From a virus (lineage: Duplodnaviria > Heunggongvirae > Uroviricota > Caudoviricetes): a stretch of DNA of 64,000 nt. Under the pieces are notes generated by a model, which was not told the DNA's origin, did not search any database, and saw only the letters and a program-made list of their open reading frames with translations. Numbering within the stretch: the first letter of the stretch is position 1; the number at the start of each line of letters is the position of its first letter. Shown here piece by piece: positions 8,168 through 58,306 of the stretch. The stretch lies in IMG/VR virus record IMGVR_UViG_3300003691_000003, positions 14,097 to 78,096 of that record. One strand, 5' to 3'. Both the position numbers and the translations under genes were made by a program.

Positions 8168-8833
8168 TTATGGAGTCCCGATAGCCACATGCAGGTTTAT
8201 AGTTGCCAGTAGTATATTTGCAGTATTTGCTATTTCTCTTATTTTTAAGTTAAGTACAACAGTATTTTCGAAAGTGCTTTGAGTTTGCTGTATGTAGAAG
8301 TCTAAGTCAATTGAGAAGGTTGTCCAGGTGTCCGTGTCCCCATGCATGGCCGTTCCAAGTATAGCTAGTCCCGAAAATTTAGTAACATTATATTCGAACT
8401 CAGAAGATACTAGTCCAGTCTTAGTATCTACCCAATCCCCTATATCCACGTCGTTACCACCTATATACGCAGTTGTTGTATCGCTGGCATTACGTATTAT
8501 ATCTCCTCCTGTTCTGAATATAATACCTGCTCGTACTGAACCAGGGTCAGTTATATCTACTCCTTGGGCTATTAAGGTACCTAGACTAGCCGGGACACCA
8601 GGGGGAGTGGTACCTATTTCCGCAAACAAAGTTTTTATATCCGCAGATAGTGAGTTTTGGAAGCCAGTATTAGCCACAGGTGCAGTGCCAGCAGACACCT
8701 CTCTAAAAAGAGTTGCTATGTCATTTCCGGCAGTATCCTGAATGCCTACATTAGAAATGGGCGTAGCCCCGTTTATAGGAGCTAGTATAGTATCTAAGTC
8801 AGCCCCTGAGCTGTCGAGTAATCCGGTAGCCAT
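8168..8833 (-). CDS. tail fiber tip / receptor-binding protein, paralog A
   Basis: 221 aa. The N-terminal ~75 aa (MATGLLDSSGADLDTILAPINGATPISNVGIQDTAGNDIATLF...) are nearly identical to the adjacent 8838..9494 product. The C-terminal two thirds diverge. It sits directly downstream of the tail fiber gene. Confidence 0.6.
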   Translation of the reverse strand: MATGLLDSSGADLDTILAPINGATPISNVGIQDTAGNDIATLFREVSAGTAPVANTGFQNSLSADIKTLFAEIGTTPPGVPASLGTLIAQGVDITDPGSVRAGIIFRTGGDIIRNASDTTTAYIGGNDVDIGDWVDTKTGLVSSEFEYNVTKFSGLAILGTAMHGDTDTWTTFSIDLDFYIQQTQSTFENTVVLNLKIREIANTANILLATINLHVAIGTP

Positions 8834-8837
8834 ATCG

Positions 8838-9494
8838 TTAAGGTGTTCCTATTTGAATGTTCAAGGTTATATCTGTAGAGACTATATTTGTAGTATTTCC
8901 TATTTCTCTTATTTGCAAAGCTACAGTGCAAGACTCTACGGTATCGTCAAGAGAGCTAGATAAGTAAAAACTTAATTCGGAGCTAAAAGTAGTCCAGGTA
9001 TTAGTGTTTCCATGTAGCACAGTGCCGGAGGGTACATCCCCGAAAGTCAGTGTCGCATTATACTGAAAATCACTCGATGATAGCCCAGTCTTATCTGCAA
9101 CCCAGTCCCCTGCGTCAGCTCGTGGTCCACCTGAAGACGATGTTGTACTGGAGTTATTTATAACATCACCATCAACTTCGAATATTATCTCGCACCTAAC
9201 CGACCCTGGGTTGGTCAAGTCTTGAGCCAGAGGCGTGAAAGTACTGTCAACCGCTAATAGTGGAGGTACTGTCCCTATCTCTGCAAACAAAGTTTTTATG
9301 TCAGCCGCTAACGAATTTTGAAATCCAGTATTAGCCACAGGTGCAGTACCCGCAGCAACATCTCTAAATAGGGTCGCTATATCGTTGCCTGCAGTATCCT
9401 GAATACCTACGTTAGAAATAGGCGTAGCTCCGTTTATAGGAGCTAGGATAGTGTCTAAATCGGCGCCTGCGCTATTGAGTAACCCTGTAGCCAT
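8838..9494 (-). CDS. tail fiber tip / receptor-binding protein, paralog B
   Basis: 218 aa. Shares its N-terminus with 8168..8833, with a divergent C-terminus. It starts 2 nt after the stop of the tail fiber gene. Confidence 0.6.
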   Translation of the reverse strand: MATGLLNSAGADLDTILAPINGATPISNVGIQDTAGNDIATLFRDVAAGTAPVANTGFQNSLAADIKTLFAEIGTVPPLLAVDSTFTPLAQDLTNPGSVRCEIIFEVDGDVINNSSTTSSSGGPRADAGDWVADKTGLSSSDFQYNATLTFGDVPSGTVLHGNTNTWTTFSSELSFYLSSSLDDTVESCTVALQIREIGNTTNIVSTDITLNIQIGTP

Positions 9495-11304: not shown

Positions 11305-11403
11305 TGAAGTATCTCGTATTATCGATAATTAATTATAAGGAACTGGTGTTCCTGTTAGAGCTCTGGTACTATTTTAGTATGATTAAAACATTGGAGAGCA
11401 TAT

Positions 11404-23936: not shown

Positions 23937-26906
23937 ATGTTTAAAGAAATAAAAGAAAAAGTAAACATATTAGATGGGTTTGAAAAATATCTAGATATGT
24001 CTATGGTTCCATGTGGAGAGGATACGTTTGAACCAGAAGATAAGACTTGTCCATTTTGCGAACACAGAGATTGTTTCAAGATAAAATCTAGCGAAGAATT
24101 CTCGTGTTGGTCTTGTTTCTCAGATTGTCAAATAAGTGGGGGAGACTTAGTAGACTTCGTGAAAAGATATCACGATGTTTCCATATCAGAAGCTGCTAGA
24201 ACTATTGCGGAGGATTTTGGAATAGCTGTTTCGTCAGTCAAAAGAAATCCTAAGCAAGAAGTCATGGACCTCGCAGGTAGCTACTACCACAACCAACTAC
24301 TTGAAAATGAAACGTCTACTATAGCTAAAGATGGGGTCAAGTATTCTCCTTTGAACTATCAGCTAGAAGTAAGGAAACATGATAAGCGTACGTTAGAGTA
24401 TCTAAAAGTAGGTTGGTCTGATGGAGGGTTAGTAGAGTATTTAACATCCATAGGCATAGACTTGAAGGTCATAGAAGGCGCTGGCCTTATGAATAAGAAG
24501 GGTAATGATTATATTGCCGGTGGTAGATTCGTATACCCTCACATTGTTCATAATAAAGTATCCAGCTTTACCCTAAAGTCTCCTGATCCTAAGGATAAAG
24601 TTTATCAGTTTAGGAAAGTTAATAGGTTAAATGAGGTAGTTCTATACAATCAGAATTCTGCTACCAGGGCCAAGGCTACTATTATCATAGTGGAAGGAGA
24701 GAATGATGTTGCCTCTGTACTGGATGATGGGTGGAGCGAAGGTATAGTTGGGACTTGCGGAACAATAGATACTCATCAACTAAGTTTTCTAAAGAAGCAT
24801 GTAGTAGATAAGCATGTCATAACTTTGTTCGATGCAGATGGAGCGGGGGATAAGTATCGTAGCAAGGCTAACGAACTCGCACCGTTTGCCGCAGTTATGC
24901 AACACATCAAGGTGCCTGTCGAGTTTAACGATATTGATGCGTATCTAAAGAAGGGTAATACCCTAGAGGATGCTAATAGAGATTTCGAAGTCACGGTTGA
25001 TTTAACCGGTGGTCAAAGAAGTTTGGCTCTATTGCCTCCTACTGCCAACTTACATATGGATACTCTACGTAAGCAGGCTAAGAAGCCCGAAGCAATGAAA
25101 GACGTTAAAGAAGGCTCTAATGTAGACATTGAAAGTGAAAATCAAAAGACTGTTACTGTCGAAGAGGATGGCAGCTTTGATGACGACGCTGGATCTGGTT
25201 CTAGAAAAATAACTGAGGCAGAAGGGTGCTATTTAAAAACTAGATACTCTAATGGTGAGCCTCAGGTAGTAGCCATAACTAACTTTGTTATCGTAATAAA
25301 TAACATATTTATACGTGGTAATAACGAACGTACTAGAGAGATTCAAATCATATCTAAGAATGGGCAGACAAGTAGACCCTTGTCAGTTTCGTCTGCAGAT
25401 AAAGTATCTCTTAAATCGTTTAAAACGTTGCTAGCTAATGCTGCAGATGCTAGTTTTTATGGAACAGAAAACGATCTTATAAACATATGGGAATATGTGT
25501 ATGCCAAAGGTTCTCCTAGGTTTGTAATAATCCCGGACATGGTAGGATCTATAGCAGAGTTCAACGGCTGGTTATTTGACGATTGCTTTATCAATGTACA
25601 AGGTGAGGTGTTTTCTCCGGATAAGGGTGGAGTCATGTGGGCTGATACTACTGGTCACTCTAAGACTCAGCAGCGTGGTATCAAGGGCAGAGATATTAAT
25701 GATAGTGAATGTAGCAGTGCTAGTATTCCTAGGTTAAACAATATGTTTGGCAAAGATGACTACGAAGATCTACTTGAGGGCTTCGTGGCTAACCTTGCTC
25801 AGAACTTAGGTAACCCTGGAATGGCTCTTACAATGATAGCGTGGGCTCAAGCTAATGCATATTCTGATGATATATTCGATGTATGGAGATGCTTTCCTTT
25901 CTTATTCATGTGGGGCCGTCATGGTCAGGGTAAGACGAACTTAGTTAAGTGGGTCTTAGCTACTTACGATATGGAAGAGAAAGGATACACTACTATTGCT
26001 AACCTAAAGACGGCTGTGGGTTTTGAACGTAAGGCGGCTTACTACGCATCTCTGCCATTGGCGATTGATGAGGTAAGAGCTGATAAAAATACGTCCATGC
26101 ACTACGGCAGATTCCGAAGCTGGTATAACCGTGCTCCTAGAACCATGGGTACACGAGAGGGGTCTAATGTTAAAGTAGTACCGGTCAGATCTAACTTTAT
26201 ATTTAGTGGCCAGGATATATTTACGGATGATGCGCTAGCAGACAGATGTATATCTTTACAACTTCCTAAAGGCGGTAGAGAATTAAGAGATTCTTACTCC
26301 TGGATAGAAGGTCGCATAGATGATTTGTCAGCTATAGGTTATAACTGGATACTTGAAGCTAAGGGTACTGATTTTAAAGAAGTGGAAGAAGGCATGAAGG
26401 ATGTAGGCACTATGCTAAAAGCCACTCCTGCCAGTTCCAGATCTAGAATTCAGTGGGGTATCATAGGGTATTTCGCATTGAAGTTGAGGGATAAATACCT
26501 CCCTGACTTTAACTACGAAAGTTATCTCAAGACTACTGTAACTTTAGAAGCTAAGAGTAACACTGAGAACGATGCGTTATCTATATTCTTTACTCACGTA
26601 GAAGGTATGTGTGCCGGAGAACGTCCGGATATTCACTCTGATCACGTTAAGGTGGAGGATGACGTAATGTATATATGGTTTATGGAAATGGTAAACCTAG
26701 TTAGTAGAAGAACTGTGCACGACAACAGAGAGGCGTTTACTTACAACGCATTGAGAGCTGCAATACTAGAAGAAGGATGGTGTCTTGGATCAGGTATCAA
26801 GCGATTGGGTCATCGTAATACTCAACGAAGAGTAATACAGATTGATCTAAAGCATAAGACAGTGCCTTTCAGTTTGACAAGTATAGCGGAATCTCTAACT
26901 TCATAA
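23937..26906 (+). CDS. DNA primase-helicase (DnaG-type zinc-binding plus TOPRIM primase fused to a P-loop NTPase/helicase)
   Basis: N-terminal zinc finger CPFCEHRDCFKI...CWSCFSDC. TOPRIM motifs IIVEGENDVASV (E-G..D) and LFDADGAGDKY (DxD). C-terminal Walker A FMWGRHGQGKTNLV and Walker B LAIDEVRADK. Confidence 0.8.
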   Translation: MFKEIKEKVNILDGFEKYLDMSMVPCGEDTFEPEDKTCPFCEHRDCFKIKSSEEFSCWSCFSDCQISGGDLVDFVKRYHDVSISEAARTIAEDFGIAVSSVKRNPKQEVMDLAGSYYHNQLLENETSTIAKDGVKYSPLNYQLEVRKHDKRTLEYLKVGWSDGGLVEYLTSIGIDLKVIEGAGLMNKKGNDYIAGGRFVYPHIVHNKVSSFTLKSPDPKDKVYQFRKVNRLNEVVLYNQNSATRAKATIIIVEGENDVASVLDDGWSEGIVGTCGTIDTHQLSFLKKHVVDKHVITLFDADGAGDKYRSKANELAPFAAVMQHIKVPVEFNDIDAYLKKGNTLEDANRDFEVTVDLTGGQRSLALLPPTANLHMDTLRKQAKKPEAMKDVKEGSNVDIESENQKTVTVEEDGSFDDDAGSGSRKITEAEGCYLKTRYSNGEPQVVAITNFVIVINNIFIRGNNERTREIQIISKNGQTSRPLSVSSADKVSLKSFKTLLANAADASFYGTENDLINIWEYVYAKGSPRFVIIPDMVGSIAEFNGWLFDDCFINVQGEVFSPDKGGVMWADTTGHSKTQQRGIKGRDINDSECSSASIPRLNNMFGKDDYEDLLEGFVANLAQNLGNPGMALTMIAWAQANAYSDDIFDVWRCFPFLFMWGRHGQGKTNLVKWVLATYDMEEKGYTTIANLKTAVGFERKAAYYASLPLAIDEVRADKNTSMHYGRFRSWYNRAPRTMGTREGSNVKVVPVRSNFIFSGQDIFTDDALADRCISLQLPKGGRELRDSYSWIEGRIDDLSAIGYNWILEAKGTDFKEVEEGMKDVGTMLKATPASSRSRIQWGIIGYFALKLRDKYLPDFNYESYLKTTVTLEAKSNTENDALSIFFTHVEGMCAGERPDIHSDHVKVEDDVMYIWFMEMVNLVSRRTVHDNREAFTYNALRAAILEEGWCLGSGIKRLGHRNTQRRVIQIDLKHKTVPFSLTSIAESLTS

Positions 26907-27583: not shown

Positions 27584-28207
27584 ATGAGCGGTAGAAGAAG
27601 AGGTAGAAGGGGAGGGAACAGGCATGTTCCCGACTTTGCCCAAAGATTGCAAGATTCACATAACGCTAGAAATGGTATAGAAAATGAAAGTACCCTTCCA
27701 GTTATTAACCTAACTACCGAAGCTAGCAGTACATCCTTTACTTTGTCAGGAAGTGACACTACCTCCTTCACTGTTGCAGGATGGAACAATGTGGTATCCA
27801 ATACGTCAGGCAAGATAGATAGATTCGAAAATGAAAGCATAGAGAGAATACTCATGGGGTTCGTAACTTGGATGTCTAACCTCAAATTTACGGTACACTT
27901 CGGAGAGGGCTATACTCAAGACATGGGAATGCAGCTTCTTAAGGAGTTTCTTAAAGCCAACAAAGGGTACGATGACTTGGATCATTTATTTAACGGGTTG
28001 TTTTATAGTCAAGTGATATCCCCTTCACATCAGTTTTCAGATTTAGATATAGATCCTCAAAATGAAGTAGATAACTCAAGTAGGTTATTTCGTAATTTTG
28101 AAGATGAACTTTTGCCAGACAGGCCTGACTACACAACCATTATAGATCTGCAAGGTACGCAAATACACGGCAATGTGGACGATGAACTTAACCTTATAAA
28201 TTTCTAA
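27584..28207 (+). CDS. hypothetical protein with an Arg/Gly-rich N-terminus
   Basis: GGAGGT RBS 5 nt before the ATG at 27584 (the track starts it at 27572). Begins MSGRRRGRRGGNRH. Confidence 0.45.
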   Translation: MSGRRRGRRGGNRHVPDFAQRLQDSHNARNGIENESTLPVINLTTEASSTSFTLSGSDTTSFTVAGWNNVVSNTSGKIDRFENESIERILMGFVTWMSNLKFTVHFGEGYTQDMGMQLLKEFLKANKGYDDLDHLFNGLFYSQVISPSHQFSDLDIDPQNEVDNSSRLFRNFEDELLPDRPDYTTIIDLQGTQIHGNVDDELNLINF

Positions 28208-28949: not shown

Positions 28950-28974
28950 TGGTATAAGTATACTGAGGAAATGT
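28950..28974 (+). promoter_or_regulatory. extended -10 promoter copy 6
   Basis: TGGTATAAGTATACTGAGGAAATG. Confidence 0.5.
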
Positions 28975-42622: not shown

Positions 42623-43054
42623 TTATTTTTTCTTAGAATTCAAGTGTATCTTATCTTTGCCTAAGCTCTTGCCCATGTGGTGTCCTCCATATGTCCCTAG
42701 TGGACCTAAACCTACCAATGTTCCTATTCCAGAACCTACAGCTGCGTTATTAGCTACGGTTTTAAAATTTGCTTTCTGTTTAGCAGTGTAACCTTCTCCA
42801 AGTCTTTTAGGTATCATGGACCCTATGGTGCCTCCCACGACTGCTCCTCCGAGTGCCCCTGATAAGGCAGTTCTTATGCCTTTACCTATGCCTTTACGCC
42901 CATGGGCAATTGCAGATATTACTCCCATACCCCCGCCTATGTTTGCACCATGTGCCCCGCCTTCTGCTGCATGACTCAAAGGTACATCTTTATGGTTAGG
43001 TAATTTAGCCTTAGTCTTCTTAGCTTCTGCGATCTTTTCTAGGTATATGTTCAT
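42623..43054 (-). CDS. MNIYLEKIAE-family basic glycine-zipper protein
   Basis: Starts MNIYLEKIAEAKKTKAK. Gly-rich segments GGAHGANIGGGMGVISAIAHG and GALGGAVVGGTIGS. Confidence 0.55.
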   Translation of the reverse strand: MNIYLEKIAEAKKTKAKLPNHKDVPLSHAAEGGAHGANIGGGMGVISAIAHGRKGIGKGIRTALSGALGGAVVGGTIGSMIPKRLGEGYTAKQKANFKTVANNAAVGSGIGTLVGLGPLGTYGGHHMGKSLGKDKIHLNSKKK

Positions 43055-43877: not shown

Positions 43878-44085
43878 AACCGTAATACACCTAGTAACCG
43901 ACGATTCAAACCCTTTCTGTGAAGTGTGCGGAACACATATGACAGATATATGGGATAGTCCGGATCGAATCATACCTGAACCAAAATCATATCGTTTTAA
44001 GCTGAGTAACAGAGGTAGGCACTTCGCCAGCTGCAATCCTCACTCCGTATCCAACTCTGACCACTTATTTGAGAAAGAACTATGA
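43846..44085 (+). CDS. HLV-CxxC family member 4
   Basis: VIHLV..CEVCG...C..SDHLF. Start uncertain (the track shows a longer ORF from 43759). Confidence 0.4.
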   Translation: MQKTRRKEISKTVIHLVTDDSNPFCEVCGTHMTDIWDSPDRIIPEPKSYRFKLSNRGRHFASCNPHSVSNSDHLFEKEL

Positions 44086-44300
44086 GCCCTGAAAAGACAA
44101 TACATGTTTATGAAAGTGATACGTATCTATGTAATCGTTGCGGCATAGATCTAGACAGTACAGAGCATATATTAGAACGATGCGTAAGCGTACAGAGTGC
44201 TGAGATATTTTACGCTAAGGGAGATGGGCATATGTTGTGTTCTGGCCTAAGCAGATCGTCTTACTTATTTAAAAAAAGGGAGAAGATGATATATGACTGA
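44082..44300 (+). CDS. HLV-CxxC family member 5 (divergent)
   Basis: IHVY..CNRCG...C...SSYLF. Confidence 0.45.
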   Translation: MSPEKTIHVYESDTYLCNRCGIDLDSTEHILERCVSVQSAEIFYAKGDGHMLCSGLSRSSYLFKKREKMIYD

Positions 44301-44529
44301 TACACGAATACTCCACCTAGTTAGTAAAGGCGGCAAGTGCTCTAGATGCCATAAGAGTAAACAAGACTTTGAGCCTGACGTAGACGCCCGAACCGGTTCA
44401 GAAGGTTTGTATAAAAAATATGCAACTGGCGAGGAAATATCTGCCTACGGCGTTATCTACTATCCATGCGATGATACAACTGGAAGGGTATTCTCTTCCA
44501 AAGTAAACTTAGAAGGATTCAAGTTATGA
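44293..44529 (+). CDS. HLV-CxxC family member 6
   Basis: ILHLV..CSRC...C..GRVF...NLEGFKL. Confidence 0.5.
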   Translation: MTDTRILHLVSKGGKCSRCHKSKQDFEPDVDARTGSEGLYKKYATGEEISAYGVIYYPCDDTTGRVFSSKVNLEGFKL

Positions 44530-44771
44530 GATCTAATAGAATACTTCATTTAGTTCCTAATAAAGAGGAGCGTAGTTGTAAGGTATGCGGCAAGCATCAA
44601 CGTTTTTTTAACACAGAGAAAGAGTCGGTGGCTTATAACGAAAGGGTTTATAGAGAATTCGTAGTTGAAGGAAAAGCTAAATCGTTTAATCATGTCGAGT
44701 ATACAGCATGCTCTGGTCCAGTTACTAGAATGTTCAATGACGTAGTTAACTTAGAAGGATTCAAACTATGA
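44526..44771 (+). CDS. HLV-CxxC family member 7
   Basis: MRSNRILHLV..CKVCG...C..TRMFNDVVNLEGFKL. Confidence 0.55.
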   Translation: MRSNRILHLVPNKEERSCKVCGKHQRFFNTEKESVAYNERVYREFVVEGKAKSFNHVEYTACSGPVTRMFNDVVNLEGFKL

Positions 44772-45004
44772 GATCTAATAGAATACTTCATTTAGTTCTT
44801 ACAGATGAGCGTAGGTGTGAGATATGTAATAGGTATGTACACACTGTTAATCGTGAAAGAGAATCAGTCACTCGTAACAGCACCTTATACCGAGAGGCAG
44901 TATCCTTGACTAAGTCTTTTAGCACTACTAAGTACATAGTATGTTCAACACCAGTTACTAGAATGTTCAATGACGTAGTTAACTTAGAAGGATTCAAACT
45001 ATGA
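44768..45004 (+). CDS. HLV-CxxC family member 8
   Basis: MRSNRILHLV..CEIC...C..TRMFNDVVNLEGFKL. The N- and C-termini are identical to member 7 and the middle is divergent. Confidence 0.55.
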   Translation: MRSNRILHLVLTDERRCEICNRYVHTVNRERESVTRNSTLYREAVSLTKSFSTTKYIVCSTPVTRMFNDVVNLEGFKL

Positions 45005-45210
45005 GCCTATCAACTGAGACGCCGTCTAGGATATGTCACTTTATGGACAAGGGTAAATGTACCGTGTGCGGAATGGAAACCAAATACCTAATAGCTTTAG
45101 ATGCAGACTTTCTTTTCGCCATCAGCCTACCTACTTACTCTGAAACTTTAAGAAAAGGTAAAGCAGTTGCCTGCGGGTCTAATTCTCATAGGTTATTCAG
45201 TAGTCTGTAA
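45001..45210 (+). CDS. HLV-CxxC family member 9 (divergent)
   Basis: ICHF..CTVCG...C..SHRLF. Confidence 0.45.
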   Translation: MSLSTETPSRICHFMDKGKCTVCGMETKYLIALDADFLFAISLPTYSETLRKGKAVACGSNSHRLFSSL

Positions 45211-45222
45211 CGTGGTAGTTTT

Positions 45223-45247
45223 TGGTATAAGTAATGTGAGGAGGATT
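45223..45247 (+). promoter_or_regulatory. extended -10 promoter copy 13, internal to the array
   Basis: TGGTATAAGTAATGTGAGGAGG. Confidence 0.5.
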
Positions 45248-45249
45248 TT

Positions 45250-45507
45250 ATGGATATACTTAATGAGGTTGAATACACTCTTCATTTACTGGGAAAGACT
45301 GGTAGCAAATGTAAGTTCTGTGGCTTGGATAATAAGGACTTAGTAATCAACGTAAATTACCATCTTTTTACTGGCAGCAAAGATACTTACAGAGTATGCA
45401 TGGCTGCACGCACTAAAGACAATAGTGCAGTTTATTATATTAGCTGTAAGAAAGATTATGGTGGCCTATTTGATTCACCTGTTAACTTAGAAGGATTCAA
45501 ACTATGA
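45250..45507 (+). CDS. HLV-CxxC family member 10
   Basis: LHLL..CKFCG...C...GGLFDSPVNLEGFKL. Preceded by promoter copy 13. Confidence 0.5.
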   Translation: MDILNEVEYTLHLLGKTGSKCKFCGLDNKDLVINVNYHLFTGSKDTYRVCMAARTKDNSAVYYISCKKDYGGLFDSPVNLEGFKL

Positions 45508-45743
45508 CTGCAATATATCGGACATTACATAGGATTGAACAGCCTTATAGTCTAAAGTGCAAACATTGCGGAATGAGAGTTATTGACATGGGGTGGCAGG
45601 ATAGAACCTCTTCTTATCAGTCTGAGTATATGGTCTTACTAAACCCGAAAGGTGACGAGAATACGATAACTAGTTATTCTGCATGCGTAGATATGCATAG
45701 GTTTTTTAAGACGTACGTTAAACTGGCGGGGTTCAAACTATGA
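45504..45743 (+). CDS. HLV-CxxC family member 11
   Basis: LHRI..CKHCG...C..MHRFF...AGFKL. Confidence 0.5.
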   Translation: MTAIYRTLHRIEQPYSLKCKHCGMRVIDMGWQDRTSSYQSEYMVLLNPKGDENTITSYSACVDMHRFFKTYVKLAGFKL

Positions 45744-45982
45744 AGGATATACGTAAGAGACAAATAACAGTTCATCTTGCTAGTAAGAATGCTCCAGATC
45801 AGTGCAAGCTTTGCAGGAAGGTAGTGAGTAGATTTTCTTACACGCATATATGCACGACTGAGATAAGGTTCTATGAAGACAGGTTATCTAATACACACCC
45901 TGATACGGCAACGTATAATGAGTGCAGAAAAATAGGTAGACTGTTTAATGCATATGCAGTGACAAGAGGATTCAAGCTGTGA
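45740..45982 (+). CDS. HLV-CxxC family member 12
   Basis: TVHLA..CKLC...C..IGRLF...RGFKL. Confidence 0.5.
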   Translation: MKDIRKRQITVHLASKNAPDQCKLCRKVVSRFSYTHICTTEIRFYEDRLSNTHPDTATYNECRKIGRLFNAYAVTRGFKL

Positions 45983-46221
45983 CTATACGGCTACTACGGA
46001 ATATAACTCTACATTTCGTAAGGGATGTACAGCACAACTACTGCGACGTTTGCGGAAAGCTGTTTGAAGACTTCTCTATAGATGATAAGTTTACTTCAGA
46101 CGAAGGACACTACGGCGACAGGCTATACCACGTCAAGTTCGATAGTGTAAAGTACGTCTCTTGCAGAATGGAAAGTAGATTATTCAAGGGACATACGGTG
46201 GTAGGAGGATTCAAGCTGTGA
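45979..46221 (+). CDS. HLV-CxxC family member 13
   Basis: GTG start. TLHFV..CDVCG...C..SRLF...GGFKL. Confidence 0.5.
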   Translation: MTIRLLRNITLHFVRDVQHNYCDVCGKLFEDFSIDDKFTSDEGHYGDRLYHVKFDSVKYVSCRMESRLFKGHTVVGGFKL

Positions 46222-51047: not shown

Positions 51048-51072
51048 AGGGGTCTAGTAACCCCTTTCTTTT
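51048..51072. terminator. bidirectional terminator with the conserved CCCCTTTCTTTTAGC flank
   Basis: AGGGGT-ctagta-ACCCCT then TTCTTTT. Lies between the convergent + small HTH gene and the - MNVYLEKIAE gene. Confidence 0.6.
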
Positions 51073-51631
51073 AGCTCTCAGATAACTTCTTTAACTTACG
51101 CCTAGCTTGAGCAGCTTTGCGCTTATCGTATCTCTCTTTCGATGATTTTTTCTTGGAGTTTATATATGAACCCACTAACGCTCCTGTCGTCACCCCAGCT
51201 CCTAGACCAGTCTTAAGTGCAGCTTTAGCAGCGTAATTACCCAGCTTTCCTCTTACTACTTTAGCTCGTCTATCTCGGTAAGTTTGAAAGGACTTAATAG
51301 TGGCGTCATGTGGTGAAAGCCCATGTTTACGACTAAGGCGTTCTGCTCGTACCATAACGTCCCTAGGGATAGTACCCTGATTAGTCTTTACCATCTTCTT
51401 AGACTTCATAGCTGCGCTACTTGCAGCTTCATTGGTAAACATTTCTTCACTATATCTCTTAAAACCGACTGTCCCACCTACGTAACCACCGACGAGTGCA
51501 CCAGTCCTTACAGGATGCATCTTTTCATGATCCGGTGTTTTCATTCTCTTGTCAATGTAGCTACTGTATCTACTCCGCAAGCTTTTCTTTTTACCCTTAG
51601 CTTCTGCGATTTTTTCTAAGTATACGTTCAT
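51071..51631 (-). CDS. MNIYLEKIAE-family basic glycine-zipper protein
   Basis: Starts MNVYLEKIAEAKGKKKSLRS. Contains GALVGGYVGGTVG and GLGAGVTTGALVGSY. Confidence 0.55.
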   Translation of the reverse strand: MNVYLEKIAEAKGKKKSLRSRYSSYIDKRMKTPDHEKMHPVRTGALVGGYVGGTVGFKRYSEEMFTNEAASSAAMKSKKMVKTNQGTIPRDVMVRAERLSRKHGLSPHDATIKSFQTYRDRRAKVVRGKLGNYAAKAALKTGLGAGVTTGALVGSYINSKKKSSKERYDKRKAAQARRKLKKLSES

Positions 51632-51633
51632 TC

Positions 51634-52530
51634 TTAGTTACCTTTCTTCTGATGTTTAGTGTATACCTTATCGGCTATTTTCTTAGTTACGTGCAAAGCT
51701 CCGCCTTTGGCTGCTGCAGAAGTGACGTACGTACCCATTGCCGCTGCTAATCCTGGAACAGCTTTGAGCATTTTCTTCTTACCTAAATGTTTTTTCATCT
51801 TGCGTAAGGCATGAGTATTTGCATAACCCTCGTCTGCCAATGTAGGTAACTGAGATGCTAGAGCCACTGCTTGAGACCTATCCCTAGTTTTTTGATTCTT
51901 ACTATATATGCCAAGGGCTGCTACGCCACCTACGTTAGAGGACATGCCCCTAGCACGAGTCATAGCCTTCCCTATATATTTTTTGTTATGTAGTTTAGCG
52001 TGACCCTGTTCATGTAGTAGGGCGCCAATGTCCCCATTCCCCCCTCCAGATATAACACCTTTGCGGGATATGCCCTTAGTTTTGGGGATGTACATCGGAC
52101 TATGTCCTACTGTCACATTAAGAGCACCGGCATTGATTTGCCTAAGACGGCTTACTGCCTTTCTGTAATTCTTACCCAACGTAGCATTAGCAAAAGGTAG
52201 TCTAGTCCTACTCTTGACAGGGGTGATTATCTTATCTGCTCTTCTACTACCTGCTTCAGAGTTACCTGATATCGACGTAACCTTACCCACTAACTTGTCT
52301 TCTTTCATGGATTTCTTGTACGCAGACAATTCTTTTTTAGAATACTTGTTGCTACCCCTATCCATCTCTTTATTCATCTTGTTGTGTAAGGCTTTGTTGG
52401 CAACCCCGGCTGCGCCACCTATTATGGTTGATGGGACAAACGCCTTAACGAAGGTCTCGCCTATATGATACTTTCGCTTATCTTTCTTCTTACTCTTAGC
52501 TTCTGCGATTTTTTCCAAGTATATGTTCAT
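51634..52530 (-). CDS. MNIYLEKIAE-family basic glycine-zipper protein (largest member)
   Basis: Starts MNIYLEKIAEAKSKKKDKRKY. Contains IIGGAAGVANKA, GGGNGDIGALLHEQGHAKLH and LAAAMGTYVTSAAAKGG. Confidence 0.55.
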   Translation of the reverse strand: MNIYLEKIAEAKSKKKDKRKYHIGETFVKAFVPSTIIGGAAGVANKALHNKMNKEMDRGSNKYSKKELSAYKKSMKEDKLVGKVTSISGNSEAGSRRADKIITPVKSRTRLPFANATLGKNYRKAVSRLRQINAGALNVTVGHSPMYIPKTKGISRKGVISGGGNGDIGALLHEQGHAKLHNKKYIGKAMTRARGMSSNVGGVAALGIYSKNQKTRDRSQAVALASQLPTLADEGYANTHALRKMKKHLGKKKMLKAVPGLAAAMGTYVTSAAAKGGALHVTKKIADKVYTKHQKKGN

Positions 52531-52532
52531 TG

Positions 52533-52922
52533 TTACTTATCCTTACGGGCCTTCAGGGCTTTATATGATTCGTAGGCTGTCCCGGCTGCTGCTGCTCCAA
52601 GGGCTGCTCCCTTAAGGACTCTACCTTTGGATTGTTTGAGTCTATTCTCTAATGCCTCTCCATACTTAACTTTTTTTTTCAATTTCTTGAAATGGTCGTT
52701 GGGGCTTTTGCGGTTAAAAACGTTCCAAGTCTTATCGTTGTACTCTCGATGCTTTGTATGCAGGATATCTGCCTTACGTACAGACTTGGCAGTTTTCTTA
52801 TCATAGGTCATAGCTACGCCTGTTGCCGCTCCACCTGCGGTAGCAACTGCTGCCGTTTCTGTAGCTCGTCTAGCCTTACTCTTAGCTTCTGCGATTTTTT
52901 CTAAGTATACATTTGTAGTCAT
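52533..52922 (-). CDS. MNIYLEKIAE-family basic protein
   Basis: MTTNVYLEKIAEAKSKARR. An upstream in-frame ATG at 52958 exists, but family conservation favours the start at 52922. Contains VATAGGAATGVAMT and GAALGAAAAGTAYESY. Confidence 0.5.
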   Translation of the reverse strand: MTTNVYLEKIAEAKSKARRATETAAVATAGGAATGVAMTYDKKTAKSVRKADILHTKHREYNDKTWNVFNRKSPNDHFKKLKKKVKYGEALENRLKQSKGRVLKGAALGAAAAGTAYESYKALKARKDK

Positions 52923-53005
52923 TTGGTAAGTCTCGTTAGGGTTATTAGTCGTATTCAATGAAAGTATTTTAGCACGAGAATTCCCTCAATAACAACTGGC
53001 GGACT

Positions 53006-53030
53006 TGGTATAAGTATTATGTAGAGAAAC
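53006..53030 (+). promoter_or_regulatory. extended -10 promoter copy 15 (the consensus itself)
   Basis: TGGTATAAGTATTATGTAGAGAAAC. Confidence 0.55.
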
Positions 53031-53055
53031 TTAACCAGTCTGAGGAGACAATATT

Positions 53056-53292
53056 ATGGATACACCACACGTTACCCCTGTTCTTGACGGAGAAAAAATT
53101 ATACGTCAAACACGGAACGGCAATTATATGGTATGTATAGTAGGATACGAAGACGTAGATGACCCCTACCTTAAGCCATTCGTATCGGTTCATCATGTGA
53201 GTGAAAACCCACGTGATAGAATGACATTTAAAAATATCAAGGACGCTAACGCATTTGCAGATGTCCAGAATAAAATAGATATAACTTTCTGA
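53056..53292 (+). CDS. hypothetical protein
   Basis: Promoter copy 15, GAGGAG RBS, 78-aa ORF. Confidence 0.45.
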   Translation: MDTPHVTPVLDGEKIIRQTRNGNYMVCIVGYEDVDDPYLKPFVSVHHVSENPRDRMTFKNIKDANAFADVQNKIDITF

Positions 53293-53302
53293 GGAGACAA
53301 CT

Positions 53303-53569
53303 ATGAGTAACGACAAGCTACTAACCAATGTACAGATTACGAACCTAATAGCTGAATGGGAAGGACTCAAGGAAACAGCTTGGGATATGGATACTTTCCT
53401 AAAAGTAGTGAAAGAGCATCTAATTAACACGGGCTATCCCGAGCTAGAGAAACTGCTAGTCAGAGAAGCTAATAAGTACGATGATGTTATAAACGACTTC
53501 GAAGACTACCTGTTCTCAAATATAGTAGAAGGTACAAAAACAAGAGGAGACAACCATGAACAACGATAA
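53303..53569 (+). CDS. hypothetical protein, tandem paralog 1
   Basis: MSNDKLLTNVQ... parallels MNNDKILTKVQ... of the next ORF. Confidence 0.45.
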   Translation: MSNDKLLTNVQITNLIAEWEGLKETAWDMDTFLKVVKEHLINTGYPELEKLLVREANKYDDVINDFEDYLFSNIVEGTKTRGDNHEQR

Positions 53570-54868: not shown

Positions 54869-55201
54869 TTATTTCTTCTCATCCCGCTTAGACCATTTCT
54901 TTTCTATCGCATGCACATCCTTACGCCATTTGTTGTTCTTCTTAGCAGAACTATACCCTGACCCTGCACCTACTATACCACCGATAACTCCGGCAGCTGC
55001 AGATACTTTCTTGGATCTACCAGCTAATACTCGGGCTGCGGCTGTCGTGGCTATTCCCGCTACAGCTCCAGCTTTGGCAGCTTGTCCCTTTGGGCTTTGA
55101 TTTTTCGACTTATCAAATTTACCAGGATCAGGATAATCGTCACTATCCGAGGTTAAATCATATTTAGATTTTGCTATTTTCTCTAGATATATGTTCTTCA
55201 T
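54869..55201 (-). CDS. MNIYLEKIAE-family protein (divergent)
   Basis: Starts MKNIYLEKIAKSKYD. Contains GAVAGIATTAAARVLAG and AAAGVIGGIVGAGSGY glycine zippers. Confidence 0.5.
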   Translation of the reverse strand: MKNIYLEKIAKSKYDLTSDSDDYPDPGKFDKSKNQSPKGQAAKAGAVAGIATTAAARVLAGRSKKVSAAAGVIGGIVGAGSGYSSAKKNNKWRKDVHAIEKKWSKRDEKK

Positions 55202-55314: not shown

Positions 55315-56271
55315 ATGAACCAACCGAGTATTAAGCCTAATGCGGCAGATGAACATATGAAGAAAGGGATCTTAGACTATATCTCTGAGTCAAGAATAGG
55401 AATGTCACTGGCCTGTATCGCCCTATCCATAGGGGTTCTGTTCTATCCTAAATGGGTTAGAGAAAGGATTGACGCCATCAGATCTAAGACGGGAGCGTAC
55501 GACAAAGTTCTAACATTGCTCGTGGACAACCCCCTTATTGAGCACGCAGCAGTGCTCAGAGAGATGAATTTGGATGCTCAGAGCTCTGTGCTGGCCTCTA
55601 ACGTGAGGTGGCTGTGTAATGATACCATCGAGGTGACTAAGAAGCTAACAAGAGCTCAGCACGTTATTAAGGGCAAAGATCTAGACATCAAGTTTACAAA
55701 TCAAGAGAATATAGACCTTATCTCCTTTATGACCAAGGTGTATCCTAGTTATTTAAGCATAGACCTCAATGAAAAGTTAGATGCTGACATGTCCAATATG
55801 GTTGTCATGGAAACTCCTTATGGTCAGATAGTATGGCACGTGCATGAAGACGAGTTGATGGCGTTCGATCACTTAGACATCCAAGACTACTCCCGAGAGC
55901 CTGATTCCCTGAGTATAGACAAGAGCGATTGCATTAGGATGTGCAAGAATTCCAAGATCAATCCCCATATAGGTAGCTACGGTAATGTCATAGCCTTTTA
56001 CTATGAAACTACCCGAGACAAACCTGTCGAGGTCCAAACCATTGCGGCGATGTCAGGGTACAACGATTATGTCGACGACCTAGCACCTAGACACATGTGG
56101 ATTGAGGTTGACCGGTATGGTACTAAGAAGTGTGTTAAGTATACATTCGAAGAAAGTACCGATGACCTACACGGAGAGAAGCTCGGGCCATCAATCACTG
56201 ACAATCCTCAGGTTGAGAAGAAGGGCTCAGTTATTCCATTACAGTTAGTACCTACACTGAAGCTGGACTAA
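55315..56271 (+). CDS. hypothetical protein
   Basis: 318-aa ORF with a GGAGAA RBS and one N-terminal hydrophobic helix (MSLACIALSIGVLFY). A strong terminator follows at 56314-56337. Confidence 0.5.
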   Translation: MNQPSIKPNAADEHMKKGILDYISESRIGMSLACIALSIGVLFYPKWVRERIDAIRSKTGAYDKVLTLLVDNPLIEHAAVLREMNLDAQSSVLASNVRWLCNDTIEVTKKLTRAQHVIKGKDLDIKFTNQENIDLISFMTKVYPSYLSIDLNEKLDADMSNMVVMETPYGQIVWHVHEDELMAFDHLDIQDYSREPDSLSIDKSDCIRMCKNSKINPHIGSYGNVIAFYYETTRDKPVEVQTIAAMSGYNDYVDDLAPRHMWIEVDRYGTKKCVKYTFEESTDDLHGEKLGPSITDNPQVEKKGSVIPLQLVPTLKLD

Positions 56272-56313
56272 GCCAATATCATAGGCTTCCTTTCTGGGAG
56301 CACAGTTCAGGGA

Positions 56314-56337
56314 GGAGTCATTGCGACTCCTTTTTTT
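56314..56337 (+). terminator. rho-independent terminator
   Basis: GGAGTC-attgc-GACTCC followed by TTTTTTT. Confidence 0.7.
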
Positions 56338-57704
56338 ATGAGTTACGAGAAAGTACGGATTTGTCACAGATTGGCAGACTAGTGTAAATGCTCTAGAGGC
56401 CACGTGATTGCTGACTATGGTGTTTTCTTGGATGAGGTGATAGGAACGAATTCTCAAAATCGTCACAGAAGAGTCACAGGAAAAGGTTACGTAAGTTACT
56501 GATATTTATACAGTTAAGGTAGTATGCCCTTTGAGAATATTTTTTACACTAGGAACAACCCCTCATATAAATATATTTTTTAAAGAAAAGTATATTATAT
56601 TACTATAGGTTGTCACAGAGTAACGGTAGAGAGGGAGAAGTTTTTCAGACGGAGTTTTACCTTGGTTGATGTTTTGTTGTAGCGGAAAATAGTTTCGCTG
56701 GATTTATTTTTTTATTTTCAAGTGAGGAATATTTCGTGTCGTATATTCTAAGTATCGTAGAAAATACCTGTGACACCGGAACAGGCTCGGAACGCTCGGG
56801 AACACCCTATTGTTCCCTGGGAAAGGTACGGGGTTATTGGTCTGAGGTGGTTTCTTAGAACGGTGGGAACAGCAGAAATTATTCTATTAGCCATTTATAG
56901 AAAACTGGAAATTATGGGTTGACACCAAATCATGACCCCGTGACGGTTTGTGTATTAGTTGAAAAAAATTATTTTCGTGTCACAGCCGTTCTAAAAACCT
57001 TGATGGGACCAGTCATACCGTGCGTCTCAGCGGGAACAATTGGGTGTTCCCAAGCTGTTCCCAAGCGTTCCCAGCTGTCACAAAAGTAGAAATCGTACAA
57101 TAAACGTACAACTTTTGTCGTTTAATTAGAATGTTTTCACTTTTCTTGACCGTCAAAATTTTGGCTCCCGGTATGAAAAAACGCTGAAACGCATTGAAAC
57201 ATTTGACACACTTTTTTATGACACCCTTTTTTGGACGGTTTTTAGCTAAAAACACTGTACGTTTTTTGTACAAATCGTACGTTTATTGTACAAATTGATC
57301 ACTTTTTGTCCCGGGACGAAAATAACGACACATTTGATGCAAATACGACACTGTAAGCTAGAAAATACCTTAGCTTTCTATCGTAACTACCATCCAAGCT
57401 CTCTAAATCATTAGAAAGCGTCAAAATATTGACACTATTTACTTCTTTGGCCTATCACACGTATAATCACTGTCAAATCCATGACAATACCCAAGAAAGT
57501 ACCGTAGTTACGACACTATGCTCCGCAGTCCACTACCTACGACTCTACATCCTTCTACTATACCTTACGAATCGCCCATGGAACAATCATGGAACAATTA
57601 CACGAATCGTCTTTGACCCTGTCACACATTGTAGCTATGTTAGTAACCACTAACCTATTTATTTGACTATAAATCACAGATGTTTCCAAGAAAGTACCGA
57701 AGAG

Positions 57705-57729
57705 TGGTATAAGTACTATAGAAAAGGAA
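57705..57729 (+). promoter_or_regulatory. extended -10 promoter copy 16
   Basis: TGGTATAAGTACTATAGAAAAGG, inside the non-coding repeat region. Confidence 0.45.
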
Positions 57730-57889
57730 CTTTAGGCGATAGTAATGTTACTCTAACTTAGAAATGTTCCTCGAATGTAACACCTACTGTTCCCGTGACT
57801 ACTCAACGAGCTTTAGGCGATAGAAAAGGAACTTTAACATATACATTGTTCCTCGAATGTAACACCTACTGTTCCCAAGGAAAATACCT

Positions 57890-58306
57890 ATGACCAATCC
57901 GACCCCGTTAGACCTTAAGCCAAAGGTTACATCAATGCATGAGATCAGGGCCTATCTATTTACATATGTCTCCGATATTTTCTCTGATAAGCTAGGCAAC
58001 TCGCTTGAACGCTTAGCTGTTGACACTAAGACATCACGCAGCAGTATCTTTTACTGGAGAGCACATGGTAGGTTCAGTCGACGTATGTTACTTAGAATGC
58101 TCAATCATCTGGACATAGAAGAGAGAGACTGGACTCATGCATTATCAATTACTGCTACAGCTCTCCATAAATCTCACTGGAGGATACTACCTAAGAAGAA
58201 AGACTACGATTCATCAGTAGTCTGTACTCTCGCATACCCTTCATTCAAACGAACCCTAGAAAACTCTGCAAAAAATTTGTCTGAGTTGGGTAAACCAAGA
58301 AAATAG
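57890..58306 (+). CDS. hypothetical protein with a possible HTH
   Basis: 138-aa ORF. LERLAVDTKTSRSSIFYWRAHG looks HTH-like. First gene after the repeat region. Confidence 0.45.
   Translation: MTNPTPLDLKPKVTSMHEIRAYLFTYVSDIFSDKLGNSLERLAVDTKTSRSSIFYWRAHGRFSRRMLLRMLNHLDIEERDWTHALSITATALHKSHWRILPKKKDYDSSVVCTLAYPSFKRTLENSAKNLSELGKPRK

Follow-up and report, generated by a model that had tools for sequence, protein, structure and literature searches.

What function can a 1.6-kb stretch without genes have in a phage genome that is otherwise densely packed? The question is raised by the region at positions 56272-57889 of a 64-kb stretch of DNA (64,000 nucleotides, referred to as the window; all positions are those of the window unless another genome is named) from the Caudoviricetes record IMGVR_UViG_3300003691_000003. 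The region lies between the gene for a protein of 318 amino acids (aa) at 55315-56271 and the gene for a 138-aa protein at 57890-58306 on the + strand, and an earlier sequence-only reading had proposed that it could be a replication origin with iterons, an array of operators, or a cluster of early promoters. We report here that the region is probably a non-coding platform of sequence-specific protein-binding sites, ending in one regulated promoter. A combined statement, in which the platform, an operator-controlled promoter and a replication origin would come together, is held with somewhat less than even confidence, and the origin function, which is the least secure step, is proposed with considerable doubt.

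Site families and coding potential

When the expected motif counts were derived from the rest of the window, several short sites were found far in excess in the region. GGAACA/TGTTCC occurred 14 times (0.93 expected) and GGGAACA eight times (0.18 expected), and the region holds 19 GGAAC sites. GTCACAG was present six times, five on the + strand and one on the - strand (0.13 expected), and together with two GTCACA variants (0.39 expected for GTCACA) these make up the at least eight GTCACAG/TGTGAC-type motifs that had been described. Four TTGACA hexamers (0.65 expected), two TTGTACAAAT palindromes (57266 and 57286; zero elsewhere in the window) and two copies of CTTTAGGCGATAG (57730 and 57811) were also recovered as described. 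The 30-nt direct repeat TGTTCCTCGAATGTAACACCTACTGTTCCC is exact and lies at 57765 and 57847; its copies as read from GTTCC begin at 57766 and 57848, and not at 57849 as had been given for the second. Since there are only two 30-nt copies, 82 bp apart, with an interval that is itself partly repeated, a CRISPR array was rejected. In addition, 13 internal direct repeats scored at least 11, as compared with 0-3 in 20 shuffles, and the region was the top local motif cluster of the 64-kb window by a background-normalised score (70; runner-up, 37). Three or more of the site families are helically phased or dyadic, namely the GGAAC half-sites including two 20-bp dyads, the GTAC-N7-GTAC dyads, and the GTCACAG boxes.

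No open reading frame (ORF) in the region is longer than 86 aa. The ORFs of at least 39 aa scored -0.21 to +0.13 in a codon-usage model trained on the phage's own genes, which is the range of spurious frames (real small genes have a median of +0.23). All of these ORFs bar one of 48 aa start with GTG or TTG, no convincing Shine-Dalgarno sequence was found on the region's ORFs, and searches of them against Pfam and PHROG gave no matches. ARAGORN returned 0 tRNA genes in the whole window and there was no Rfam tRNA; a tRNA cluster or tRNA remnants, as in the gene-poor stretches of relatives, was ruled out because there are no tRNA genes. Thus, as far as the sequence can tell, the region is non-coding DNA, neither a gene nor an RNA locus (the RNA evidence is given below). 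That it is the longest non-coding stretch of the window, as had been stated, holds on the gene calls used here. A longer stretch free of ORFs of at least 90 aa, at 44086-46217, is full of small genes: about nine + strand ORFs of ~70-90 aa stand in tandem at 44082-46221, joined stop to start. By raw count this is the most k-mer-repetitive stretch of the window, with DNA-level repeats between some neighbouring units only (44502-44772 and 44744-45005 are 71% identical) and a 27-nt exact repeat at three sites.

Two palindromic elements and an easily melted element

The most prominent structures in the region are PE1, a 316-bp imperfect palindrome at 56768-57083, and PE2, an inverted-repeat element of ~215 bp at 57082-57296. 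They lie side by side and are the largest and the second largest inverted repeats of the window, respectively. As single-stranded DNA, PE1 folded with z = -6.15, and 0 of 100 shuffles folded as well. Each PE1 arm starts on the outside with TGTGACA; then come three GGAAC(A/G) units spaced by 10-11 bp, the dyad GGGAACA-N6-TGTTCCC (20 bp) and, closer to the centre, TTAGAACGG. The core between the arms measures ~120 bp. The left dyad is GGGAACACCCTATTGTTCCC (56798-56817; repeat D7), and the right dyad is GGGAACAATTGGGTGTTCCC (57032-57051), followed by 3.3 copies of TGTTCCCAAGC at an 11-bp period. When the two arms were aligned, TGTGACA matched at 7/7 positions, the dyad at 19/20 and TTAGAACGG at 9/9; identity between these blocks was visibly lower, roughly half as estimated by eye, and the three GGAAC units were present in both arms despite differences in spacer length. 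Conserved motif blocks with diverged spacers suggest selection or constraint on the sites. Two further palindromes of the GGAAC...GTTCC type occur outside the region, at 27614-27631 and 11339-11352. The first, GGGAACAGGCATGTTCCC, appears inside the Arg-rich N-terminal coding part of the gene starting at 27584, and the second, GGAACTGGTGTTCC, is in the divergent intergenic region 11305-11403.

PE2 is built differently. Its core is rich in T-runs, with TGACAC(A/C)CTTTTTT twice, and is flanked by three GTAC-N7-GTAC dyads, of which the one at 57095-57109 is inverted and those at 57257-57271 and 57277-57291 form a 20-bp tandem. Short sites in at least three helically phased copies, as expected of iterons, were found as GGAAC(A/G), three per PE1 arm at 10-11 bp, and as TGTTCCCAAGC (3.3 copies, period 11). 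Other phased units are the tandem of two CATGGAACAAT copies at 57577-57598 on the + strand (period 11) and the 20-bp GTAC unit, also in two copies. Mismatches in the palindrome arms showed no G.U-compatible excess on either strand, so the palindromes are read as DNA-level rather than RNA features.

An adjacent AT-rich unwinding element, another property of iteron-type origins, was found at 56565-56604. Over 40 bp, duplex stability is nowhere lower in the window, with a nearest-neighbour free energy here of -0.908 kcal/mol per step as against a window mean of -1.285 (standard deviation 0.088), more than 4 standard deviations off; the next best value was -1.018. The most AT-rich 50-mer of the window (86%) is at the same element. 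It resembles a DNA unwinding element; its neighbours are GTCACAG boxes and not the GGAAC arrays, and PE1 is ~160 bp to its right. Four GTCACAG boxes on the + strand surround it at 56363, 56462, 56473 and 56612 (span 56363-56618), with the middle pair 11 bp apart; further copies are at 56979 (+) and 56768 (-), and variants at 57077 and 57621.

The remaining features of the left and central parts are smaller. At the left border, the upstream 318-aa gene ends in an intrinsic terminator at 56309-56339 (+ strand), with a hairpin of -13.4 kcal/mol and then a U-run, and to its right stands the first AGAAAGTAC(S)G box (56343-56359, + strand; repeat family D10/D2), with a GTCACAG box immediately behind it. 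A terminator-like hairpin (56680-56700; -8.2 kcal/mol) with a T-run lies at 56680-56715 on the + strand. To the right of PE2, the palindrome TTTTTGTCCCGGGACGAAAA at 57303-57322, a GTCCCGGGAC palindrome (inverted repeat I11), folds weakly (z = -0.64). ACGACAC boxes follow on the + strand at 57325 and 57345, 20 bp apart, and at 57510, with an inverted copy at 56736, which gives four copies in the region versus two in the rest of the window. A hairpin with a GAAAATACCT loop lies at 57352-57377 (+ strand), and a CCAAGAAAGTACCG box without a -10 element at 57491-57507 (+ strand). The latter is 94% identical to 57686-57702 and is apparently a decayed copy of the box upstream of the promoter described below.

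A single promoter and its leader

By aligning intergenic regions we found the consensus of the main promoter class of the phage (class I), TGGTATAAGTAT-ww-TG-w-AG, which has an extended -10 element and no -35 element. The window holds 23 TGGTATAA-type sites on the + strand and one on the - strand, spanning 6929-62919 (for example at 28950, 32680, 33964, 34628, 48237, 53006, 57705 and 58315). In Salmonella phage Arash, one of the nearest described relatives, TGGTATAA occurs 24 times on the - strand, which holds a long leftward block of small genes, and 0 times on the + strand, and this strand pattern indicates that the class-I promoter is shared in the clade. The promoter fits the group-1/2-like sigma factor of the phage. 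At 53006-53060, an exact class-I promoter and a GAGGAG ribosome-binding site (RBS) point right, and the longest ORF there (53017-53430) is on the - strand; since a metagenome gene caller puts + strand genes there (contig L005, 2031-2800), this long ORF is probably spurious. A second candidate motif (class II), (T)GTGTTAAA(C/A)T, stands upstream of some - strand genes (32644, 33925, 43123 and 52966, all on the - strand), often back to back with a class-I promoter in one intergenic region.

The region itself has a single class-I promoter, TGGTATAAGTAC at 57705, of the extended -10 type, which forms with the second CCAAGAAAGTACCG box a unit at 57686-57716 on the + strand, at the right end as had been noted. 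The suggestion of an early promoter cluster is unsupported because there is only this one class-I promoter, the region lacks the class-II motif, and sigma-70-like sites are at chance (9 versus 7.9 expected). Two other promoter assignments were also dropped: GGAAC as the -35 element of an extracytoplasmic-function sigma factor, since no consistent -10 element follows and the phage sigma factor is group-1/2-like, and a by-eye resemblance of ACGACACTAT to SP6/T7-type promoters, since no single-subunit RNA polymerase is evident.

Downstream of the promoter is the leader of the 138-aa gene (57718-57889, + strand). It contains both copies of the exact 30-nt repeat, a 17-nt repeat ATAGAAAAGGAACTTTA at 57718 and 57820, and six GGAAC half-sites between the promoter and the ATG, and a TGTTCCC abuts the RBS. 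The distance from promoter to ATG is 185 nt, as compared with 13-81 nt at the other intergenic promoters that stand directly before a called gene start. In contig L006, from another sample, an exact-consensus promoter is joined directly to the second repeat unit, ~101 bp are absent, and the distance is 84 nt. The excess length of the leader is therefore due to a ~101-bp duplication that is missing in the variant.

Could the sites serve transcription alone? The GGAAC dyads and half-sites would then be operators at which a phage-encoded repressor or activator acts, which might be the 138-aa protein on its own gene. Looping between PE1 and the leader would control the 57705 promoter, and other early promoters might be controlled as well, with no role in replication. 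Dyads of 20 bp are typical of dimeric regulators, GGAAC sites fill the leader, and GGAAC also lies just downstream of 3 of the 23 class-I promoters (P = 0.02). Regulator genes often lie directly behind their own operators, and the 138-aa gene is a candidate for such a regulator. However, the extra 1.35 kb of repeat-rich DNA, the other motif families and the unwinding-like element are not needed for one promoter, the variant does without ~101 bp of the leader, and no DNA-binding domain could be detected in the 138-aa protein. This protein matched only itself in searches of 5.8 billion and 1.84 billion proteins, and its AlphaFold2 model, made from a single sequence, was unusable (predicted local distance difference test, pLDDT, 50). 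We consider transcriptional control as the entire function to be rather unlikely. The idea of an operator array is compatible with the two dyads and with the GGAAC sites that fill the leader of the sole promoter.

Operator arrays, looping regions and plasmid centromeres offer known parallels. In R1 parC, two blocks of 11-bp iterons lie around a promoter. Like such systems, the region has phased repeats in two blocks, dyads, sites that overlap the promoter and leader, and a downstream gene that may be autoregulated. Unlike them, it has no identifiable partition or repressor gene, and its arrays are inverted and not direct.

Replication, relatives and competing explanations

We prefer an origin because of the phased iterons, the dyads, the compact unwinding element, the insulation on the left and the promoter on the right, the self-encoded replisome of the phage, and the analogy within the clade that is described below. 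The limits of the region fit this picture, with the terminator of the upstream gene on the left and, on the right, a single extended -10 promoter whose leader is covered by GGAAC sites. In the proposed mechanism, a dimeric phage protein would bind the GGGAACA-N6-TGTTCCC dyads and spread cooperatively over the neighbouring phased half-sites in both PE1 arms. The same protein would occupy the leader and so control the downstream early gene for the 138-aa protein, and the complete complex of DNA and protein, with the unwinding-prone 40 bp, would form a replication origin used by the replisome that the phage encodes. A 989-aa fusion of a DnaG primase and a P-loop NTPase, with an extra C-terminal domain, would be part of this replisome.

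Iteron-type origins, such as the lambda origin, plasmid origins and the ori/crr sites of phage P4 that are bound by the alpha primase-helicase, share with the region arrays of sites phased at 10-11 bp, an adjacent compact AT-rich element and a nearby promoter. The TGTTCCC that is iterated here resembles the P4 iteron, TGTTCACC. The 989-aa protein has a DnaG-type N-terminus, a Walker A motif at residue 660, LAIDE at 708 and ~190 further residues. P4 alpha is an origin-binding protein with the same domain order, DnaG primase and P-loop NTPase followed by an extra C-terminal domain (PMC2777425). By this domain order the 989-aa protein is a candidate iteron binder; we take this as a lead only, since it does not count as evidence that the system belongs to this type. 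A homologue search with its C-terminus returned nothing and the model of this part had a pLDDT of 30, and a profile of the primase orthologues matched only DnaG primases in the PDB. The region differs from iteron-type origins in being 4-10 times larger, in having several unrelated motif families, 0 exact DnaA boxes and no adjacent identifiable initiator, and in that its arrays are the inverted arms of a 316-bp palindrome. What stands of the origin and iteron proposal of the sequence-only reading is the phasing of GGAAC units in two inverted arrays and the least stable 40 bp among GTCACAG boxes; DnaA boxes, an initiator nearby and conservation in relatives were not found.

Several results weigh against the combined statement, and the elevated polymorphism, the heterogeneity of the motifs and the size count against the origin in particular. 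The region has 0 exact matches to the DnaA box TTWTNCACA and 8 sites with one mismatch (3.1 expected), none of them paired; IHF sites are not enriched in it, and sites for DnaA, IHF, CRP and LexA were all rejected as host-factor sites since none is meaningfully enriched. GC skew gave no origin-type signal, only a local change of sign caused by the inverted arrays. The searches pointed to no binder of the sites, and both flanking genes are ORFans: their products (318 aa and 138 aa) matched only themselves by tblastn in phages and IMG/VR, in the 5.8-billion-protein search and in an exhaustive HMMER search, one extra match (P0004) being a tandem-repeat artefact, and neither had a match in Pfam, PHROG or the PDB. 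With 1.6 kb and at least three unrelated motif families, the region exceeds typical phage origins in size and heterogeneity, and the conserved blocks of PE1 were partly defined after the fact. There are no homologues of the region by blastn in phages or plasmids, and no sequence relative was found in the phage, plasmid, IMG/VR, GTDB or JGI collections. Among four contigs, the density of single-nucleotide polymorphisms (SNPs) was 2.27 per kb in the region and 0.46 per kb outside (p = 0.003); this roughly 5-fold difference and the polymorphic ~101-bp indel argue for weak constraint on at least parts of the region. None of the seven SNPs falls in a GGAAC or GTCACA core, with only ~0.6 expected there. 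Finally, several repeat families, GAAAATACCT(A/G)TGAC, CCTAyTGTTCCC..GGAAA and CTGTTCCCAAG, copy the promoter-upstream box, the leader or the RBS-start of the 138-aa gene. Since they amount to copies of a promoter-leader-start cassette, duplication alone explains some of the enrichment.

Indeed, we attribute part of the repeat richness to an ongoing local duplication of the promoter-leader-start cassette that is still polymorphic. An explanation that extends this to the whole region would have it as evolutionary debris or selfish DNA, a hotspot prone to duplication and inversion with serial cassette copies, 11-bp and 20-bp tandem units made by slippage, and one or two palindromic insertions like miniature inverted-repeat transposable elements (MITEs), in which only the promoter is functional. 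Apart from the indel, the SNP density and the cassette copies, this is favoured by the ends of PE1, which starts with TGTG and ends with CACA like the ends of DDE transposons, and by the dispersed palindromic elements of relatives, which could be mobile. However, no target-site duplication was seen at the PE1 ends on inspection of the sequence, and the window has no second copy of PE1 or PE2. A pattern scan for the PE1 arm motif found 0 matches in IMG/VR (2.9 million viral contigs), two chance matches in GTDB genomes (596 Gb, the chance level) and six unrelated chance matches in JGI metagenomes. A MITE or transposon remnant was rejected on these grounds, although imperfect arms resembling terminal inverted repeats are present. 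The conserved motif cores of the PE1 arms between diverged spacers also argue against debris. In addition, one would not expect junk of 1.6 kb to persist in so densely packed a phage genome, and contigs from five ENA assemblies have kept the region, with 99.4% identity or more. We judge it unlikely that the whole region is debris; if it is, it would be an unusually plastic non-coding hotspot in a tightly packed genome.

The window comes from an uncultured phage (NCBI WGS JQIA01, a 78-kb contig), and the ENA contigs belong to the same phage, which was found in a series of metagenome assemblies at 99.4-99.99% identity. Since exact look-ups return only this phage, they give no evolutionary contrast. 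Among described phages, its nearest relatives are Salmonella phage Arash and Vibrio phages D69, D148 and D181, to which it is 51-53% identical in the amino acids of the fused beta/beta'-like RNA polymerase. Arash, an 'orphan' myovirus, carries its RNA polymerase and a sigma factor inside the virion (PMC10585845). Synteny with Arash is limited to 1-28 kb of the window (RNA polymerase, portal, helicases, sigma factor, thymidylate synthase and primase), and beyond 28 kb, both flanks of the region included, there are no detectable Arash homologues.

The genomes of two relatives nevertheless contain analogous elements. Arash (OQ632216.1) has five copies of a ~210-bp intergenic element, all in the same orientation and 85-94% identical to each other, at ~26627-26838, 66375-66585, 100131-100342, 138478-138688 and 173251-173454 (loci L001-L004), that is, every 34-40 kb around the 180.8-kb genome. 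The element has inverted ends CAAACGTTGTAACC...GGTTACAACGTTTG with GGTTACA repeats around a very AT-rich core, which is virtually identical in 5/5 copies, and it appears to be undescribed in the text of the Arash paper (PMC10585845). At 100.2 kb of Arash, the order of terminator, repeats with AT core, class-I promoter and next gene is that of the region in miniature. D69 (OZ195729.1) has imperfect palindromes of ~335 bp at 67351-67687 and 125061-125392 (L011 and L012), whose arms carry iterated GTTACAC, TGCTACAT and GTTGCAA and one GC-rich hairpin each around a TATATA-rich core. The D69 palindrome at 125.06 kb, annotated as tiny ORFs 0230-0232, lies between a ligase gene and the genes for an exonuclease and the primase homologue, and a TGTAACTTTTC-GTAAC sub-motif is common to the D69 palindromes and the Arash element.

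Like the region, these elements belong to the same clade and occupy intergenic gaps, and they have inverted arms of iterated 6-8-bp motifs (GGTTACA; GTTACAC; TGCTACAT), an AT-rich core and a size near that of PE1 and PE2. They differ in having no sequence similarity to the region and in occurring as several dispersed copies, while PE1 and PE2 lie next to each other and are found once each. It appears that intergenic palindromes with iterated arms and AT-rich cores are a trait of the clade, with lineage-specific sequence. By analogy, Arash-like phages might use an undescribed class of replication or chromosome-organising elements, intergenic imperfect palindromes with phased motif arms and an easily melted core, of which PE1/PE2, the Arash 210-bp element and the D69 ~335-bp palindromes would be lineage versions. 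Such elements would be bound by rapidly co-evolving domains of the primase-helicase or of another phage protein, and replication would be multi-origin as in T4. We regard this extension as speculative and improbable as it stands; since Arash can be cultured and has five evenly spaced palindromic elements, multi-origin replication can be tested there directly. Very little work has been done on large lytic phages that encode an RNA polymerase and a replisome of their own, the Arash-like group among them, and the region offers concrete sites (the 20-bp dyad, the phased half-sites and the 40-bp unwinding element) with which origin-binding or regulatory proteins could be found. Repeat-rich non-coding control regions are already known in large phages, as in the T5 injection-stop signal (iss) and iteron origins; judged from sequence comparisons, what is new in the region is its lack of sequence relatives and its unusual double-palindrome architecture.

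The T5 iss region itself is a possible model, in which the region would be a cis site near a genome end or a terminal-repeat boundary, with a role in the arrest of injection, in packaging or in the processing of concatemers. The T5 region is strikingly similar in size and texture, the packaging of RNA polymerase in the Arash virion makes a staged entry conceivable (PMC10585845), and three metagenome contigs end inside the region. However, low coverage or repeats, and the way in which the contigs were selected, account for these breaks. The T5 iss region lies in a long terminal repeat and has paired DnaA boxes, a conserved T5 hallmark, in an order that is conserved across T5-like phages, whereas exact DnaA boxes are absent here and no relative shares the region. 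In the contig, which is partial, there was also no evidence of terminal repeats or ends here, the neighbours of the region are ordinary early genes on the + strand with class-I promoters to either side, and the terminase gene is not near. A terminus-associated role is thus very improbable.

Least probable of all, and hardly credible, is a non-coding RNA locus with one or more small RNAs or a large structured RNA, as might be drawn from the GOLLD RNA in a similar gene-free 1.2-kb gap of D69: only 57280-57519 notably folds better than shuffles on the + strand (best stretch 57325-57516, with z = -3.1 over 235 nt and, for windows of 160 nt, -4.4 and -5.2), z is unremarkable in most of the 160-nt windows, and, even if the hairpin at 56680-56700 could end a short transcript, the folded stretch has no recognisable promoter upstream, the palindrome arms lack the G.U-compatible bias of an RNA, the low GC content and richness in short repeats are unlike known large structured RNAs, and no Rfam family, GOLLD included, matched the region in covariance-model searches even at E<=1 with lax filters.

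In D69, a full-length GOLLD RNA (RF02032; 186 bits, E = 1.7e-52) lies at ~99273-99683 on the - strand (L012, 2274-2684), in the 1.2-kb gap between two tRNA clusters, where the record annotates only tiny hypothetical proteins (VPHD69_0165-0170). GOLLD was not found in Arash, of which 1-100 kb was scanned, or in the window. This unannotated GOLLD and the dispersed elements of Arash may lend themselves to follow-up work sooner than the region does. Arash also has a group I intron (RF00028, 58.9 bits) at ~88256-88527 (L001 38256-38527, - strand), and the ORFs annotated as 'DNA polymerase theta' and 'DNA polymerase nu' on either side of it are probably one intron-split polymerase gene.

Other repeats of the window lie within genes. 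Two adjacent genes on the - strand, at 8168-8833 (221 aa) and 8838-9494 (218 aa), are paralogues whose 5' ends share 83% identity over 226 nt. A further family of - strand genes shares the N-terminus MN(I/V)YLEKIAEAK, with the remainder of the proteins differing; its members are at 42623-43054, 51071-51631, 51634-52530, 52533-52958 and 54869-55201, with a small ORF from ~33378, and their common N-termini correspond to dispersed DNA repeats of 40-60 nt at the 5' ends of the genes.

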